Of a DNA stretch of 60,337 bases, positions 313 to 30,432 are shown piece after piece (within the stretch, counting starts at the first letter, position 1; every line of letters starts with the position of its first letter). This DNA is from a virus (lineage: Duplodnaviria > Caudoviricetes): positions 1 through 60,337 of IMG/VR virus record IMGVR_UViG_3300011400_000003; one strand, given 5' to 3'. The notes under the pieces are model-generated. The model searched no databases and was not told the DNA's origin. It saw only the letters and a program-made list of their open reading frames with translations. Made by a program: the position numbers and the translations under genes.

Positions 313-3045
313 CTATTCCTCCTCTCCACTAGTTGATGCATCAAGAGTACTGAGCGATACACCAAGTCTTTGTGCAACTTCTGCTCTTGTTGCACCTTGT
401 GCTAGCAAGGAGCGAGCTAATGCAGTCTTAGATGCTGTCATCAATACTTGTCGTCTTGGTGTAGCTAGCTCTCGCACATTCTCAATGTCTGCCTTCTTAA
501 GTATCTGAGATAGTACATTGTCGCTAACCGCACCTGCTTGTACTGCATTCCATTCTTCAGGTGTGAACTTAATCTTCTTTGATCTAACACCTACTACTGC
601 ACGAGCACGCTCTAACTCACGCCCTCTAATCTTCTTACGGGAGGACTCTTCTAAATTGGGGTGTTCTGCAAAGTGCGCTCGTGTGATGGTGTTGGCTATA
701 GCCTGGGCCTTTCGTTCACGGGGGCGGTTACTAATGACTAATGAAAGCTTAGCCTTCAATGAATCAACTTCGTTCTTGTAGATCCTGGCTGCTGATGGTG
801 AACGTTGAAGCAATGGTGTATTCAATGCTTCAAGCCTGGCAGTGTTAGCTAAGTTCTTTAACTTGTTAGAGTGATTAGCATACAGCACTTCCATTGGTGT
901 ACCAGAAGAAAGTGTGTGTGCATCCTCTGCTATGGCTAGCTTGTTTACTTTTCTAGTCTTGGGTACTAACTCGCCTGCTTTGTTGCGACGCTTCTTACCT
1001 GTAGGTACGGTAACCTTACGACCAGTGACCCTATCAACGGGCCCACCCTCTGACTGAGGACGATCCTTAAAGTCGGGGAACTTACGTATCTCAGACTTTT
1101 TCCTAGAGATTAAGGTAGATGCGCCCCTGTTTGCGCCTTCCTGATACTCTGCTTTAAGGGCAGCAATACCATTACGTTTCTTAGATAGCTGCCAATCAAG
1201 GCCGTGTTTCTCTGAGTCAATCACTACCATAGAATGACGGATAGCACGAACAAGATGGTCATGTGGCGCAAGCTTAAGAGTCATGTCTGTAATTAAGTTA
1301 GAGACATTACCCATCTCTTGATTCTTCTTGTCCACTGTAATCTTAGGAATTACTAGATTCCCATCTTTGTCTTTAGGAATCTTATAGATCTGAGGATCGA
1401 AGTCTTTCAACCCATCAAGTGGATCAGTAGCAATGAACTTGTTAGAATTGTTAGGAATGACAAGTACAGTATCACCATCAAAGTCGGCACCAGACAACAC
1501 TTGTGCTGTGCTGTGATTAATACCAACAGCATCAATGGCTTCACCACCAATTAATTTCTGTCCTTCAGGATTCCTGTTATTAACTGTTAATCTAGGAATC
1601 TCAAATGTACCACCATGAGGATATCTAACAAGAACTACCTCTTCTCCATTGTTATAGTTAGGAGCATAGATCTCTCTCTTACCAAGGGTATCAAGAGGAA
1701 GGATGGCGTGCCAGTTTGATCTAGGTAAAGCGGCAGCTCTTAAGTGAACAGCAGCAGCATCTGCTTTGTCAGCAAACTTCTCAAGAAGAACCTTCTTAAC
1801 TGTAGGATTGGTTAACTCCATGATGTCTTCAAATTCTTTTTGTTCACGCTCGAAGGTAACATCAAGTTGTTCTTTAGCCAACTTAGGACTCTGCTTTGAA
1901 AGCATCTGAGAAGAAAGACTTTCTGCCCACTTGTGCCAGTCACCCTGCTCGTTGACAAGATTCATAGCAGAGACATTCTTTTCGTTAGGTTGTCCTTCAT
2001 TCTTAACAATCTGACGAACAACGGAACCAAAAGGATAGTCTGTATCTTCCTCAATCTCTTTCATAGCATCAAGTTTATTTCCTGTGTTCTTCTTATTAGT
2101 GTTGAACACAAGATCCACGCCATCAGGAAGGTTGTCCTTGTAGACAGCCATACCTTTCAGATAGTGGCCTTTACCTACTTGAATTCTAACTTGAGCATAC
2201 CGATTCTTACCTAAAGTAAGATCTTTTGCGCCTTCTCGAACATAGATTACACCATCAGCTTCTGCTCCACCTTCATCACCATAACGAATCATTACTCGTC
2301 TTGGACTGACTGGAATTGGAGGATGATTAGTTAAACCCCACTGTCTTCCACCATCAGATGTAAAGGCTTGAATTTGTTTGATGTTGAATCGCTGTTCCCA
2401 GGCTTCTTTTTGAGTAACACCAGGAGGAACGAGTACTTTGTTGTTGGTATCGAAAGTGGTCCCAACCTGTGGTGATTTAAACTGATGAACCCGGTATCCT
2501 TCTTCTTCAAGGATAGCTACTGCAGCAGAAAGTTTTTGTTGACTTATACCTTTGGATTCTAAACCATCACCAATTGGAACATAGCTTTCTACACCACTAC
2601 CAACATCAATTGGACTCTTAGTTTTCCAAGCTTCATCAACATGAGTCTTAAGCATGGCCGCTGTGTTAACGAGAATATCATTACGATCTTTAACACTAGG
2701 GTCTAAAAACGAACGGAAAGTAGTTTCAGGAACACCCATCGCGGCAGCCGCAGCTACACCAGACATACCCTTCTTATACTTTAACTCATGTGCACGTACA
2801 ATGTTATCTTGCCTCTGTCTGTGAAGCTCAATGGTTTTTCTCGCACGAAGTTGTGTTGTGGAAGAACACCCTAACGCTTCTGCTCGTTCTTTCTCAGTAA
2901 GTCCTTGTTTTCTAAGATCCGCTTCAAGATCTAAGAAAGAAGGATTACGAGGCGTTCCTTCATTACCTCCACTACCCCAAGGATAACGACCAGAATGACG
3001 AGGAGTACCATAGTGAGCAAGATAGTCGTCTTCTTCAATAATCAC
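313..3045 (-). CDS. Single-subunit two-barrel DNA-dependent RNA polymerase (YonO-like), with N-terminal LAH-YG tag and HTH segments
   Basis: LSGADFDGD catalytic motif with upstream YAP and RYPH motifs; 910 aa; C-terminal HTH (RAEVAQRLGVSLSTL). Confidence 0.88.
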   Translation of the reverse strand: MIIEEDDYLAHYGTPRHSGRYPWGSGGNEGTPRNPSFLDLEADLRKQGLTEKERAEALGCSSTTQLRARKTIELHRQRQDNIVRAHELKYKKGMSGVAAAAAMGVPETTFRSFLDPSVKDRNDILVNTAAMLKTHVDEAWKTKSPIDVGSGVESYVPIGDGLESKGISQQKLSAAVAILEEEGYRVHQFKSPQVGTTFDTNNKVLVPPGVTQKEAWEQRFNIKQIQAFTSDGGRQWGLTNHPPIPVSPRRVMIRYGDEGGAEADGVIYVREGAKDLTLGKNRYAQVRIQVGKGHYLKGMAVYKDNLPDGVDLVFNTNKKNTGNKLDAMKEIEEDTDYPFGSVVRQIVKNEGQPNEKNVSAMNLVNEQGDWHKWAESLSSQMLSKQSPKLAKEQLDVTFEREQKEFEDIMELTNPTVKKVLLEKFADKADAAAVHLRAAALPRSNWHAILPLDTLGKREIYAPNYNNGEEVVLVRYPHGGTFEIPRLTVNNRNPEGQKLIGGEAIDAVGINHSTAQVLSGADFDGDTVLVIPNNSNKFIATDPLDGLKDFDPQIYKIPKDKDGNLVIPKITVDKKNQEMGNVSNLITDMTLKLAPHDHLVRAIRHSMVVIDSEKHGLDWQLSKKRNGIAALKAEYQEGANRGASTLISRKKSEIRKFPDFKDRPQSEGGPVDRVTGRKVTVPTGKKRRNKAGELVPKTRKVNKLAIAEDAHTLSSGTPMEVLYANHSNKLKNLANTARLEALNTPLLQRSPSAARIYKNEVDSLKAKLSLVISNRPRERKAQAIANTITRAHFAEHPNLEESSRKKIRGRELERARAVVGVRSKKIKFTPEEWNAVQAGAVSDNVLSQILKKADIENVRELATPRRQVLMTASKTALARSLLAQGATRAEVAQRLGVSLSTLDASTSGEEE

Positions 3046-3858: not shown

Positions 3859-3898
3859 GACATCTCCAGAAAAATTGAGAAACTGTGAGTTCCTCTCA

Positions 3899-3922
3899 TT
3901 ATATGGGATGTTTGGCGAGCGG
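3899..3922 (-). promoter_or_regulatory. Phage-specific promoter, divergent copy
   Basis: CCGCTCGCCAAACATCCCATATAA keeps the CGC / ACA / TATAA spacing of the 14 other copies. Confidence 0.55.
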
Positions 3923-3931
3923 AATGATACC

Positions 3932-4447
3932 CTATTTAACAATTTCGAAGATTGACCCATATGGAAAGAGTTCGACGCCTGAGTATGTAGATGTCCAAAT
4001 ATCCTCAAACAGTAAACCCTCTTTCATCCCTGCTTCTACAATACTAGAATAACAATCACCAGTCACAATATTGACACATGCCAGGTTTTGATAATGCACT
4101 GGTATTCTTGCTCTTAACTGATGTGTGTATTTCCATGCAAACCATCTAGGGCGCCAAATAAGATTATAGGCTGCCACATTAGAAAAATCCCCATCTAATA
4201 TCACAACGTGATCGCATAATAAATTAGGAGATTCAACAAAGTACTCAGCAACTAAACGAGCAACACTACGAGTATGTCTTCCACCATCCCATGGAGATTT
4301 CAAAGCGACCTTCAAGTGTCCGAACGTGTTAAAGCTCAGACTCATGATCATGTCTCTAGATGTGTTATAGATTCTACCAACGTTACTCACATGATATGTT
4401 GGAAATTCTCGTATTACTTCCCATTCCTCTTGAATTGTATCAAGCAC
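3932..4447 (-). CDS. NUMOD4 / degenerate HNH protein
   Basis: EEWEVIREFPTYHVSNVGRI (NUMOD4), RLVAEYF, DGDFSN...NL; catalytic His apparently lost; GTG start with GGAGG. Confidence 0.75.
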   Translation of the reverse strand: MLDTIQEEWEVIREFPTYHVSNVGRIYNTSRDMIMSLSFNTFGHLKVALKSPWDGGRHTRSVARLVAEYFVESPNLLCDHVVILDGDFSNVAAYNLIWRPRWFAWKYTHQLRARIPVHYQNLACVNIVTGDCYSSIVEAGMKEGLLFEDIWTSTYSGVELFPYGSIFEIVK

Positions 4448-4718
4448 GGCGCCTCCAGAACTGCCACCATCGTTTACGAACGAGTGCCAGAGACCAACCA
4501 TTAGCTGTACATTTGTCGCAAGGTAAGAATATACCTTGGTTCAAATCCAATACTGCTCCATTGTCCCCACATACAGTACACGGAACATTGTGTGATGCAC
4601 CTAAACCAAAATCAACAATAATCTGTGTTGCGAACGGTTGGGGTTCTGACAATCGGTCTTGGACCACACGATATCGAGAAACTTGCTGATAATTTGTAGC
4701 ATAACTTCTATTGGTCAT
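4440..4718 (-). CDS. Hypothetical Zn-ribbon protein
   Basis: CxxC...CxxC; AAAGGGA RBS. Confidence 0.6.
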   Translation of the reverse strand: MTNRSYATNYQQVSRYRVVQDRLSEPQPFATQIIVDFGLGASHNVPCTVCGDNGAVLDLNQGIFLPCDKCTANGWSLALVRKRWWQFWRRRA

Positions 4719-13384: not shown

Positions 13385-13813
13385 TTAAGCAGCAAGCTTG
13401 TTCATGACTGTGGACAAAGAGACCCCGAAGTGCTTAGCAATTTCCGCATTGGTGTATCCCATGCGCTTCATTTTCTTGAGTTCTTTGATCTCTTGCTCGT
13501 CCAGAATTACTCGTGCTTTACGAGCAGCAATCCGCTTCTTTGCTGTCTTGCTTTTCAGTTGTGTCGTGTTGTTATTTATTTGATCAGGTGTGAATGCCTG
13601 AACAACGACGCTAGAGTCCTGAAGCTTGACCCGAACGATCAAGTCTCGCTTGCTGGCTTCAGAATATACCTTGTACATGAAGCCACCAAGACCAATGTGA
13701 AAGTCAGAGTCTTTGGTGATCTTCCACACACTACCGTCAAGCCACTGACCCCAGGGGTACTGAGCCTCAGACTCTTTTTCGTCTTTCGGAAATTCACGCA
13801 AACGACTAGCCAT
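13385..13813 (-). CDS. HTH DNA-binding protein
   Basis: YPWGQWLDG N-domain; C-terminal HTH GYTNAEIAKHFGVSLSTV. Confidence 0.75.
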   Translation of the reverse strand: MASRLREFPKDEKESEAQYPWGQWLDGSVWKITKDSDFHIGLGGFMYKVYSEASKRDLIVRVKLQDSSVVVQAFTPDQINNNTTQLKSKTAKKRIAARKARVILDEQEIKELKKMKRMGYTNAEIAKHFGVSLSTVMNKLAA

Positions 13814-14005
13814 TATTATGTTCCTTTCAATTGTGGTTAGCTAACAACGAAGGGCTGTGAGTAATCATCGAGAATAATTAAGGTGAGCGCAGGAGTAAAT
13901 CCAGCCCTTAATGAAACTCTAGAAGTATTTCAGCGTACGCCCCTCCAGTAAGTTCCTTAGGCTTACCTTCTATAACGTACATCCATACTGTCCTCACAGC
14001 ACCAG

Positions 14006-14360
14006 TGGACCTGGGGGGAATCGAACCCCCGTCCAGAACTCCTTTAACTGCTCGTTTACTGCAATAGCCACTGGAACCGTGGCCGCTCTCACGCTCCACC
14101 ACCTTCTTTTTCTGCGGAGAATAAAGAAGGAAACGCATTACTCTTTCCTTACTTAGCCGTTAGTTAATAGGGTGGACCAACCCCAGACGTGGCTACTACT
14201 ACGCAGCAACCAGTTGAGCGTCAGCGCAAAGCGCCTCGTACTCAGCGTCGATGTCACCGATGTTGGTGTCATTTAGTTTGGTTCCGTGTTTTAACGTCAC
14301 TTCGGAGATGACGTGCAGAAGAAACAATCTCCAGTAGATCTGTCGAATCCTATCAGGCCC
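14006..14360 (-). ncRNA. ssrA: tmRNA (355 nt); tag ORF 14199..14270 encodes (A)DTNIGDIDAEYEALCADAQLVAA
   Basis: 5' GGGCCUGAUAGGAUUCGAC; 3' GGGGGUUCGAUUCCCCCCAGGUCCA; G3:U70 Ala identity pair; UAAAU before the resume codon; tag ends LVAA followed by three UAG. Confidence 0.95.
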
Positions 14361-16904: not shown

Positions 16905-16974
16905 TAGGCTCCATTCAAATGGACAGAAAATAAGAAAGAGGTACCTGATAAATCAGATATTGTCCTCTCTCCTA

Positions 16975-27398: not shown

Positions 27399-28160
27399 TT
27401 ACAATATCTTCCTATCACTGGCACGAAGATGCTTATAGTCAAATGCCAAGCAAGGTTCACCCTCTGGCGACATTGTTGTAGAAAATTCCAACTCAAGTAA
27501 CTTGTCAGTATCCCAACCTAGATTGTCTGACTCAGATGTGTGATCCAAATTAAGAAGATCATAGAAGTCTGACATTGTTACCCAATAAGTATTCACAACC
27601 ATTTGGTTGATGTCGTTCTCTGCCTTGCGCAGACTTTCCATGTCACTCTTGAAATATCTTCCTGTCCACAACTCACAGCACAGAACCTCTCCTTTACCAA
27701 GCATCAGTATCTGAGAGTTTGGAGGATTATCCGTAATCTTCTTCTGTGCTAACTCGTCACGAATCTTTTGTTCTTTTCCCTTACCGAATTGTTCTATTAC
27801 GTGATCCTTGTACTCTGAGAATGCACGTTCGGTAATGGAATATGCGGCTACTGCAGCAGATGTGCGTCGTCCGGATGCTCTTTGAGATCCGATAATGCAT
27901 GCAATCGTAGCTGCGCCTGAAATCACAGGTGGAATATATAACACCCATGTTTCTTGCACTGATCTTATAAAATACTCTCTACGATTTCTGAACGGTTGCT
28001 CCTTTTTTAATTCCTCCAGTGGTTGGACCGCTTTGAACGACGCTTTCGCCGTTAAATATGATGTCGTTACTACACCCGCAACACCAAGACCTGTGAAAAT
28101 TTCAGGAGAGTTTCTTTTAAGTGTTTTTAATGACCTATTAAAAATATCTGATGCGGTCAA
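27399..28160 (-). CDS. DUF6353-like membrane-associated protein
   Basis: RNSPEIFTGLG...YIPP...GRYFKS...VTMSDFYDLL...GW; start uncertain. Confidence 0.75.
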   Translation of the reverse strand: MTASDIFNRSLKTLKRNSPEIFTGLGVAGVVTTSYLTAKASFKAVQPLEELKKEQPFRNRREYFIRSVQETWVLYIPPVISGAATIACIIGSQRASGRRTSAAVAAYSITERAFSEYKDHVIEQFGKGKEQKIRDELAQKKITDNPPNSQILMLGKGEVLCCELWTGRYFKSDMESLRKAENDINQMVVNTYWVTMSDFYDLLNLDHTSESDNLGWDTDKLLELEFSTTMSPEGEPCLAFDYKHLRASDRKIL

Positions 28161-28285
28161 CGGTTCCTCATTTCTCGGACAAATATCCAAATTAGCCAAA
28201 GTCCTCCAGTGATAACTGTCATGAAACAGTCACCAATGAACTTGAAGAATCCGTACTTTTTCTTACAACAATACGCTGGATACAT
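28157..28285 (-). CDS. Small membrane protein (42 aa)
   Basis: MYPAYCCKKKYGFFKFIGD...TGGLWLIWIFVREMRNR. Confidence 0.65.
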   Translation of the reverse strand: MYPAYCCKKKYGFFKFIGDCFMTVITGGLWLIWIFVREMRNR

Positions 28286-28506
28286 CATCCCTCCTCAAAT
28301 ATAAGTCCTACTTTTTCAAGGGCATCTACCGCTAGCTCTGCAACAACTTTAGAAGTATCAAACACTGTAAGATCTTCTGGTAGTTGTTTTTCAAAGGCCA
28401 AAGCTTGTCTTACAAACTCTTCACCAGATTCCTCTGGGTCTAGAGCAACCACCAGTTGAACCGCCATTGCTTCCATTATGGCTTCAAGAGCCACTGAGCG
28501 TTTCAC
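28285..28506 (-). CDS. Hypothetical protein (73 aa)
   Basis: GTG start after AAAGGAG; the longer ORF-track version runs through RNA units. Confidence 0.65.
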   Translation of the reverse strand: MKRSVALEAIMEAMAVQLVVALDPEESGEEFVRQALAFEKQLPEDLTVFDTSKVVAELAVDALEKVGLIFEEG

Positions 28507-28532
28507 GATTCTCCTTTGCAATTTGTAAATAT

Positions 28533-28614
28533 AAAAAAGAGGACTGGTTGAACCGCTAAGGTGTTTACATATTAGCAATTTCGTAAACTGTCTTAGTCGG
28601 ACAAGTGTCCTTTC
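28533..28614 (-). ncRNA. Promoter-driven hairpin RNA or attenuator leader (~82 nt)
   Basis: Starts at G right after TGTAAT; AGGAC/GUCCU closing stem followed by U6. Confidence 0.5.
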
Positions 28615-28615
28615 A

Positions 28616-28639
28616 TTACAAGCCATGTAAATTCGGCGA
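28616..28639 (-). promoter_or_regulatory. Phage-specific promoter
   Basis: TCGCCGAATTTACATGGCTTGTAA. Confidence 0.75.
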
Positions 28640-28640
28640 G

Positions 28641-28758
28641 AAAAAAATGAGAAGCAGGGGTTACTGGCCCAACGCAAACCAGTCGTTAAGTCCTTTTTCA
28701 GGGACCACCGAGTAGGTATGAGTTTTCTCCCATACACCTGCGTGTCTTACTCCTTCTC
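28641..28758 (-). ncRNA. ORF-less small RNA (~118 nt)
   Basis: Between two promoters; GAGAAG/CUUCUC closing stem followed by U7. Confidence 0.6.
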
Positions 28759-28759
28759 G

Positions 28760-28783
28760 TTATAGACCATGTATAAATTGCGA
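28760..28783 (-). promoter_or_regulatory. Phage-specific promoter
   Basis: TCGCAATTTATACATGGTCTATAA. Confidence 0.8.
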
Positions 28784-28790
28784 AAAATAT

Positions 28791-28843
28791 AAAAGAGGCC
28801 TGTCCCCGAGTTCGGGGTGGTACTGGTAATTTACAGACCTCTC
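28791..28843 (-). ncRNA. ORF-less small RNA (~53 nt)
   Basis: Between two promoters; GAGAGGUCUGU/ACAGGCCUCUU stem, inner CCCCG/CGGGG hairpin, U tract. Confidence 0.6.
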
Positions 28844-28844
28844 G

Positions 28845-28868
28845 TTACAAGAGTTGTATTTCTAGCGA
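28845..28868 (-). promoter_or_regulatory. Phage-specific promoter
   Basis: TCGCTAGAAATACAACTCTTGTAA. Confidence 0.75.
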
Positions 28869-28914
28869 AAAACCTAAGCTTTGTGTAAGCCTAGGTCTTG
28901 AGGCCCTTGGGTTA

Positions 28915-29088
28915 TTATTTCTCCAGTGAGTCAAACCATTTCTTTGCAAGATAGGTTGCCCCAAAAATCAGGATCCACTTGAGCAGCATGAAGCTGCCGA
29001 ATTGCTTCAGCGCTTTGATGCCAAGTTTCCTGTTCAGGGCCGACGCTTCTTCGTCAGACATGTTTCGAATATCTTCAATGGTGTACAT
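28915..29088 (-). CDS. Cassette-encoded small membrane protein (57 aa)
   Basis: MYTIEDIRNMS...LLKWILIFGA; AAAGGA RBS; terminator 28868..28898. Confidence 0.65.
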   Translation of the reverse strand: MYTIEDIRNMSDEEASALNRKLGIKALKQFGSFMLLKWILIFGATYLAKKWFDSLEK

Positions 29089-29646: not shown

Positions 29647-29675
29647 TATCCGCTCCTTTGTTAAAAATATGAGAG

Positions 29676-29758
29676 TACCGGGCACGGGATTCGAACCCGT
29701 ACGTCCTTTCGGACCGAGGATTTTAAGTCCACTGCGTCTGCCGTTTCGCCAGCCCGGC
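29676..29758 (-). tRNA. tRNA-Leu, anticodon UAA (reads TTA); CCA not encoded
   Basis: GCCGGGC/GCCCGGU acceptor stem, CUUAAAA anticodon loop (29725-29723), long variable arm GUCC-GAAA-GGAC, GGUUCGAAUCC T-arm. Confidence 0.95.
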
Positions 29759-30357: not shown

Positions 30358-30432
30358 TTTGAACCTTTCGAGAAAAAGAATATGGGATGAAGGACGATTA
30401 ACGTCCGGCTGCGAAAATATCGCGACCTCCCG

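Follow-up and report, generated by a model that had tools for sequence, protein, structure and literature searches.

The minus strand of a 60,337 bp siphovirus-type phage contig (41.5% GC), the whole of which is referred to here as the window, carries three consecutive promoter-proximal units that lack ORFs, and one of these, RNA2, is a member of a conserved family of predicted ~120-nt four-way-junction RNAs with no Rfam match. Covariance models assign 26 members to this family, comprising the window, 23 phage or metagenome contigs and two MAG contigs. Our preferred explanation, to which we give about an even chance of being right, is that all three units are promoter-proximal, partly terminating modules and that the conserved core of RNA2 binds a factor setting the balance between termination and read-through. 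The features of the region, in the direction of transcription, are as follows.

28844-28868, minus strand: promoter copy 1 (TCGCT-N-ATACA-N5-TGTAAC; matrix score 32.4), the weakest of the three
28783-28843, minus strand: RNA1, 61 nt to the U-run (53 nt to the first U stretch), an 11-bp stem enclosing a CCCCG/CGGGG hairpin
28759-28783, minus strand: promoter copy 2 (TCGCA-N-ATACA-N5-TATAAC; matrix score 38.3)
28641-28758, minus strand: RNA2, 118 nt, predicted four-way-junction family member, then a U-run
28615-28639, minus strand: promoter copy 3 (TCGCC-N-TTACA-N5-TGTAAT; matrix score 40.2), with 0 mismatches to the degenerate pattern
28533-28614, minus strand: RNA3, 82 nt, a closed structure followed by a U-run, leader of the 73-aa ORF
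28285-28506, minus strand: 73-aa ORF, GTG start at 28506 with AAAGGAG 5 nt upstream, served by promoter copy 3
27399-28199, minus strand: DUF6353 membrane-protein gene (266 aa; E 1.3e-72), the conserved downstream neighbour of the RNA2 family

Genome context and structure of the three units

Almost every long ORF of the window is encoded on the minus strand. Matches to PHROG and Pfam indicate a siphovirus layout (terminase, portal, protease, tape measure and minor tail genes) and include a 1264-aa primase-polymerase, a helicase and an exonuclease. The sequencing runs bearing the sequence are labelled freshwater sediment metagenome, and none is recorded as RNA. DNA contigs from four other runs are identical to the window over 28.2-28.9 kb and offer no variants for a pairing test. 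The genome also encodes a full-length tmRNA (14003-14360, minus strand; Rfam 78.8 bits), whose tag peptide ends in LVAA according to ARAGORN, and a tRNA-Leu(UAA) (29675-29758, minus strand) called by both ARAGORN and Rfam. Directly upstream of the tmRNA gene there is no copy of the promoter motif described below. A tRNA-Leu(UAA) gene is likewise found in the small-gene region of two related contigs, L066 (1375-1461, minus strand) and L056 (556-638, plus strand), and in these and the window it lies 0.04-0.9 kb upstream of the RNA2 family member.

A sequence-only reading of this DNA had placed promoters at 28845, 28760 and 28616, each followed by a self-closing structure (~53, ~118 and ~82 nt) ending in a U-run. 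These positions match -10-like hexamers on the minus strand, TGTAAC (28849-28844), TATAAC (28764-28759) and TGTAAT (28620-28615), which are part of a longer motif, and the structures were recovered at nearly the same lengths. Counted from the G that follows the hexamer as far as the U-run, they measure 61 nt (53 nt if ended at the first U stretch), 118 nt and 82 nt. In each unit the first bases of the predicted transcript pair with those just before the U-run, the outer stem beginning at base 1 in units 1 and 2 and at base 4 in unit 3. Stretches of 56, 123 and 82 nt fold at -17.7 (z -2.7), -35.4 (z -1.0) and -19.6 kcal/mol (z -3.3), respectively, and the folding z-score of RNA2 is modest, ranging from -1.0 (123 nt) to -2.4 (126-nt version). 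All three closing stems are followed by a U-run and the P1 stems are AU-rich, but the enclosed "loops" span 28-100 nt and exceed the 3-8 nt limit of a simple terminator scan, which therefore does not list these structures. The three RNAs are not repeats of one another.

The typical cassette of this genome consists of the motif, a Shine-Dalgarno site within ~25 nt and a small ORF, with a hairpin and U-run preceding the next copy, and the earlier suggestion that the units occupy the same slots as small-ORF cassettes agrees with the pattern around them. The accompanying proposal of RNAs with no ORF stands for RNA1 and RNA2, after which the next promoter comes at once, but not for unit 3, which leads the 73-aa ORF. 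The latter matches no Pfam family, tblastn finds no relative of it in phages, and it is followed by a 43-aa ORF and then by the DUF6353 gene.

A conserved RNA family represented by RNA2

Relatives of RNA2 were sought in loci around DUF6353 homologues taken from viral and metagenome contigs. One such locus (L002), encoding a DUF6353 protein 49% identical to that of the window, has a promoter-proximal leader with an exact 17-mer of RNA2 and several paired changes relative to it. Searching 342 kb with a covariance model based solely on the window turned up 10 more members, each encoded on the gene strand with a DUF6353 homologue downstream. The inner helix initially assigned to RNA2 (GCAGG/CCUGC) was rejected in favour of P2, a helix of 5 bp that RNAalifold proposed from an independent MAFFT alignment of 11 sequences, all of which show its covariation, and all scores then rose. 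From this alignment RNAalifold recovers P1, P2, P2a and P4, with compensatory changes in 18 of 25 pairs. Scored with model R2, made from the window alone, other family members reach 39-118 bits, the closest being L066 at 118 bits.

A pattern of conserved blocks matched 20 viral contigs, 19 of which were tested and 17 confirmed by covariance model. The same pattern matched 57 loci in 596 Gb of genome contigs; 55 of these were rejected as chance, leaving two real members, both on short MAG contigs, which score 79-91 bits with model R3. This model was built from 24 sequences with the window among them, so that the 125 bits obtained for the window itself are partly by construction. An exact search of viral contigs for the RNA2 17-mer returned the known relative only, two other matches being chance occurrences inside unrelated coding sequence. 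With R3, the loci of seven named phages and of other relatives (50 sources, 339 kb) yielded no RNA2 member, which suggests that only an uncultured subgroup carries the family.

In the consensus, P1 is a closing stem of 6-7 bp whose 5' strand begins with the G that follows TATAAT. P2 (5 bp) encloses an invariant AGACACG internal loop and a variable distal hairpin and is followed by GGUG, and P3 is a variable hairpin followed by UAA. P4 combines covarying outer pairs with a conserved U-N-C-G-N-U-G loop flanked by U-G pairs, and the 3' end consists of an AACCC junction, the 3' strand of P1, an A and a U-rich tail. Among 24 distinct sequences 98.2% of 663 cells hold standard pairs and both partners vary in 24 of 29 pairs, in an alignment that was fitted to the covariance model and so favours structure, the independent check being the MAFFT alignment with RNAalifold. 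None of 500 shuffles reached any of the measures, and partners slid by 1-3 columns pair in only 39-44% of cases. Covariation among homologues, which the sequence-only reading had named as a check on its proposal, is thus strong for RNA2. The AGACACG loop may also pair with the P4 loop as a pseudoknot; these positions are 99% paired with one compensatory change only, and we regard this pairing as a lead.

No Rfam family accounts for these sequences. A search of the whole window against Rfam 15 (4227 families) at the gathering score returned the tmRNA and the tRNA only, and relaxing the threshold to E 10 for the region 28400-28950 gave three chance-level rows, none of them on RNA2. Across the loci of seven relatives (E up to 5), the RNA2 homologues were unmatched save for one skipping-rope row at E 1.8, and neither ARAGORN nor the Rfam tRNA model calls RNA2 as a tRNA or tmRNA.

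The homologues also bear on whether the region encodes protein, either as micro-ORFs or as a 150-aa frame (28285-28737, minus strand) running through RNA2, promoter copy 3 and RNA3 into the 73-aa ORF. This frame of 150 codons opens with a GTG inside RNA2, 12 nt downstream of AAGGAG, and might be mistaken for a gene by gene-calling software. Its first 77 codons, however, cross a promoter copy and two U-runs, and the upstream part is unconserved as a frame: none of the frames remains open in all 24 RNA2 homologues, whose substitutions are paired stem changes rather than codon-like ones. RNA1 contains no ATG, GTG or TTG, and RNA3 offers one 3-codon and one 1-codon closed frame plus one TTG without a Shine-Dalgarno site. 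We consider a coding role hardly credible.

A promoter-like motif shared across the phage group

The motif preceding each unit has the form TCGCA-N4-TACA-N5-TATAAT-G and is present in 14 strong copies in the window, all on the minus (coding) strand and all in the non-structural half of the genome (nine at 31.3-27.4 kb, one at 17.0 kb and four at 10.0-9.1 kb). A degenerate 18-mer matches the window 16 times against 1.95 expected and a maximum of 6 in 100 shuffles; 15 of these matches are on the minus strand, and a site on that strand overlaps the sole plus-strand match. With a weight matrix derived from the 14 copies, those same 14 are recovered, together with one weak minus-strand site and nothing on the plus strand. 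A weaker core (AACA-N5-TATAAT-GAGAGG, ~3896-3912, minus strand) was assigned to an HNH-endonuclease-like ORF (3932-4501) and is upstream of the exonuclease and polymerase-like genes.

Over 58 sources (364 kb) the motif matches the coding strand 160 times and the opposite strand not once, with 0-3 matches in shuffled sequence, and is followed by G (136/160), A (122/160), a purine and A (117/160). The full motif is present in loci of Streptomyces (61% GC), Gordonia, Arthrobacter and Curtobacterium phages, spanning 45-61% GC, the locus of Lactococcus phage P118 (32% GC) has the core only, and no motif was found in the single Faecalibacterium phage locus tested (FP_oengus). In the named phages (L059-L064 and L142) the motif is always on the coding strand and is followed by GAGA, often with a conserved GAGACCCCUAC...GAAAGGA leader, ahead of small genes. 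The SPbeta record contains it at chance level (five matches versus four for the reversed control).

Sigma-70-type promoters have -35 and -10 hexamers 16-18 nt apart, a spacing not seen at any of the three sites, none of which is listed by a promoter scan. Upstream of TATAAT the conserved blocks are TACA, 5 nt away, and TCGCA, ~14 nt away. Transcription from sigma-70 promoters starts ~6-9 nt after the -10 hexamer, and here the covarying P1 pairs of RNA2 begin at the G directly after TATAAT, so this G should be part of the transcript. On the strength of this pairing, to which we owe the assignment of the start site, transcription most likely starts at the G itself. Since the conserved blocks are too near TATAAT for sigma-70 and pairing begins at the G, we infer a promoter for a phage-encoded enzyme. 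The purine run after the motif could instead act as a discriminator for the host polymerase. Searches of a limited literature collection returned no description of the motif or of the RNA2 family, and nothing relevant on the promoter of Arthrobacter cluster AM phages, on DUF6353 or on actinobacteriophage promoters. A paper on promoters of phiSASD1 was rejected as a precedent, as it concerns a sigma-70-type promoter of another phage.

A candidate polymerase

The motif would most likely be read by a YonO-like protein encoded at the far end of the genome, as follows.

313-3045, minus strand: 910-aa YonO/RdRP-like protein with a DFDGD loop (residues 521-525) and a C-terminal HTH

This protein, which carries HTH domains, matches a family labelled "RNA-dependent RNA polymerase" and has relatives of ~50% identity in Streptomyces, Gordonia, Arthrobacter, Curtobacterium, Lactococcus and Faecalibacterium phages. 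It has been proposed as a YonO-like RNA polymerase and as a signature of this phage group in a preprint (10.1101/842583). Like YonO of SPbeta (PMC5467207), it would be a phage-encoded, single-chain, two-barrel RNA polymerase. The two proteins are only distantly related, however, and differ in the HTH domains of the window protein and in the motif, which is at chance level in SPbeta. The study of YonO (PMC5467207) leaves its promoter undetermined and places a YonO start site upstream of an unannotated non-coding RNA. A 142-aa protein of the window (13385-13813, minus strand) has a C-terminal HTH resembling the C-terminus of the 910-aa protein (PHROG 4291, profile positions 846-906).

A bolder scheme, which we consider unlikely, would have the non-structural genes of this phage group driven by a compact promoter for its own single-chain YonO-like polymerase. 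The same promoter would also drive a set of genes for RNA only, with RNA2 as a sensor (a riboswitch or an element bound by a protein or the polymerase) gating the DUF6353 operon and other units as hairpin-repeat or tRNA-like decoys against host defences.

Neighbourhood and possible role of RNA2

In 24 of 28 loci RNA2 has a co-oriented DUF6353 gene downstream, and three of the remaining four end within 1 kb. In 16 of 26 members a Shine-Dalgarno site and the start of an ORF of at least 38 aa follow 14-26 nt past the modelled stretch (U-run included), a gap that leaves no room for another promoter, so that these genes need read-through. This ORF is DUF6353 itself in L066, L069 and L058, the order in L066 being promoter-RNA2-DUF6353 with neither RNA1 nor RNA3. 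The U-run is not always adjacent to P1 (e.g. L066, L002, L032). Phage gene order is generally conserved, and the DUF6353 neighbourhood is for this reason weak proof of regulation.

Under the partial-termination explanation, transcription would start at the G after TATAAT of a phage-group-specific promoter and the unit would end at the U-run, the preceding stem pairing the first bases of the transcript with its last. Stopping at the U-run would release a compact small RNA with both ends paired, and reading through it would leave the same fold as the 5' leader of a downstream message (73-aa ORF, 43-aa ORF and DUF6353). The junction and loops of RNA2 would bind a small ligand, a protein or the polymerase, thereby setting the balance between the two outcomes; that RNA2 binds something is suggested by the conservation of its junction and loops. 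The DUF6353 protein gives no clue to the ligand, having no known function and no PDB match (Foldseek, E up to 0.001) for its AlphaFold model (mean pLDDT 65.7).

Alternatively, the units may be free-standing genes for trans-acting small RNAs (decoys for host or defence proteins, tRNA-like mimics or antisense RNAs), with adjacency to DUF6353 merely reflecting conserved gene order, a reading that we hold to be possible though doubtful. Paired 5' and 3' ends followed by a U-run are typical of stable RNAs, the same genome has tRNA and tmRNA genes, and relatives contain units with near-identical hairpins and, in a Gordonia phage, one with tRNA-like D and T arms. A promoter directly follows RNA1 and RNA2 in the window, and in six of the 26 members (the window, L070, L073, L032, L045 and L080) a further copy intervenes between RNA2 and the next gene, so that RNA2 is not needed in cis in these six, which fits a free RNA better. 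A trans role as the sole role is at odds with the 16 members in which the next ORF can have no 5' leader other than RNA2, and antisense matches longer than 11-12 nt are absent from the phage and from the relatives' loci.

The sequence-only reading had cast the units as early small-RNA effectors such as decoys for defence proteins, antitoxin mimics or antisense regulators. This agrees with units that are promoter-driven, with a first product that is only RNA and with the conservation of RNA2, but unit 3 and the 16 of 26 RNA2 members are ORF leaders, and a role in cis, as leader or attenuator, is therefore no less likely than one as a free effector. Type III antitoxin RNAs consist of tandem direct repeats of a short unit followed by a toxin gene; here RNA1 and RNA3 have no similarity longer than 11 nt within the window and the downstream ORFs belong to no toxin family, so that a ToxI-like arrangement was not found. 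RNA anti-CRISPRs, which are solitary repeat units, resemble the CRISPR repeat of the host.

ORF-less units in the window and its relatives

Of 153 promoter copies in the window and the relatives' loci, 102 have a Shine-Dalgarno site and an ORF within 70 nt and 51 do not. Most of these 51 are ORF-less, begin with G-A/G-G-A and end in a pyrimidine-rich strand and a U-run. Judged strictly on the minimum-energy fold, end-to-end closure holds for 27 of 38 such units, a figure to be read against a weak control in which 15 of 38 still closed after shuffling of the first 10 nt, because purine-rich starts pair easily with pyrimidine-rich tails. In the deposited genomes examined, ORF-less units are annotated as empty gaps. 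Two further promoter-proximal units of this kind lead ORFs in the window.

30373-30431, minus strand: closed unit of two hairpins plus U-run, leader of a 52-aa ORF
16927-16973, minus strand: closed hairpin plus U-run (z -3.0), leader of a 120-aa ORF

RNA1 and RNA3 fit this class, which is common across the phage group. Neither has a detectable relative: blastn-short against all loci gave only chance matches of 11-16 nt, scans of viral contigs for an exact 19-mer and 18-mer gave 0 hits, and neither shares anything longer than 11 nt with any other part of the window. As the nearest RNA2-bearing contig (L066) has neither, both are likely to be additions of the window's lineage. This, together with their simple interiors, would be expected if RNA1 and RNA3 had no specific function and were ORF-less cassette leftovers, generic 5' stabilising hairpins or insulating terminators between promoters, which we judge to be quite improbable. 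An 11-bp pairing of the ends is not expected from chance deletion, and in RNA1 this pairing runs from the first base of the predicted transcript, which argues for selection. Many relatives also have units of the same build, and these frequently stand in tandem before DUF6353 (e.g. three in L032, two in L009).

Several relatives carry units with two or three near-identical hairpins (L053 493-608; L033 1122-1272; L012 3239-3322; L029 42-129), and in L032 two ORF-less units (1670-1749 and 1778-1846) have two or three hairpins with near-identical stems and loops; from their sequences these units look like arrays of binding sites. In Gordonia phage OhMyWard, the gap separating annotated genes 40 and 41 contains an ORF-less unit (L060 1929-2012) whose D and T arms are tRNA-like and whose "anticodon" arm is very short; ARAGORN does not call it as a tRNA. 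Arthrobacter phage ElephantMan likewise has the promoter with an ORF-less unit (L062 3862-3925), immediately ahead of its DUF6353 gene. A second conserved ORF-less unit of ~86 nt is found upstream of the RNA2 homologue in L028 (1470-1555) and downstream of it in L056 (991-1077).

Comparison with known systems and implications

Lambdoid phages produce short RNAs such as oop RNA and the pR'-tR' "6S" RNA, the latter read through after Q action. The units described here share with them a promoter followed within 50-200 nt by a hairpin and U-run, which would give a short RNA unless read-through occurs. They differ in being numerous, with three in tandem, in pairing the first bases of the predicted transcript within the stem and in including one four-way junction, and a Q-like factor or qut-like site was not identified in this phage. 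Cis-acting antitermination RNAs, such as put of HK022 and EAR of Bacillus, the latter included in Rfam, are likewise conserved structured RNAs at the extreme 5' end of an operon containing terminators, in the present case a phage operon. Unlike the RNAs of this study, put consists of two stem-loops and is not closed by a stem and U-run, and the lack of an Rfam match sets our family apart from EAR. Transcriptional riboswitches resemble RNA2 in having a conserved junction core, variable outer loops, a 5' leader position and a U-run after the closing helix, but none of the 4227 Rfam families matches and no alternative antiterminator fold was found. Phage tRNA regions encode small stable RNAs and bacteria have tRNA-like Y RNAs, with which the units share size (~60-120 nt), paired ends and proximity to tRNA genes, although the arm lengths of RNA2 and the 8-9-nt junction before the 3' strand of P1 do not fit a cloverleaf. 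Apart from general layout, the units have no defining feature of any named family.

The findings join a new RNA family to a recurring arrangement of cassettes, and each of these is linked to an apparently phage-specific promoter. The family is a well-supported candidate with strong covariation across its membership, and the motif supplies a precise promoter candidate for a phage group with many culturable members (Arthrobacter, Gordonia, Streptomyces and Lactococcus phages). We know of no promoter for the YonO-like polymerase of this group, and if the motif belongs to that enzyme it would be the first promoter defined for the enzyme class. ORF-less units may be a common, overlooked layer of early regulation or counter-defence in phages.
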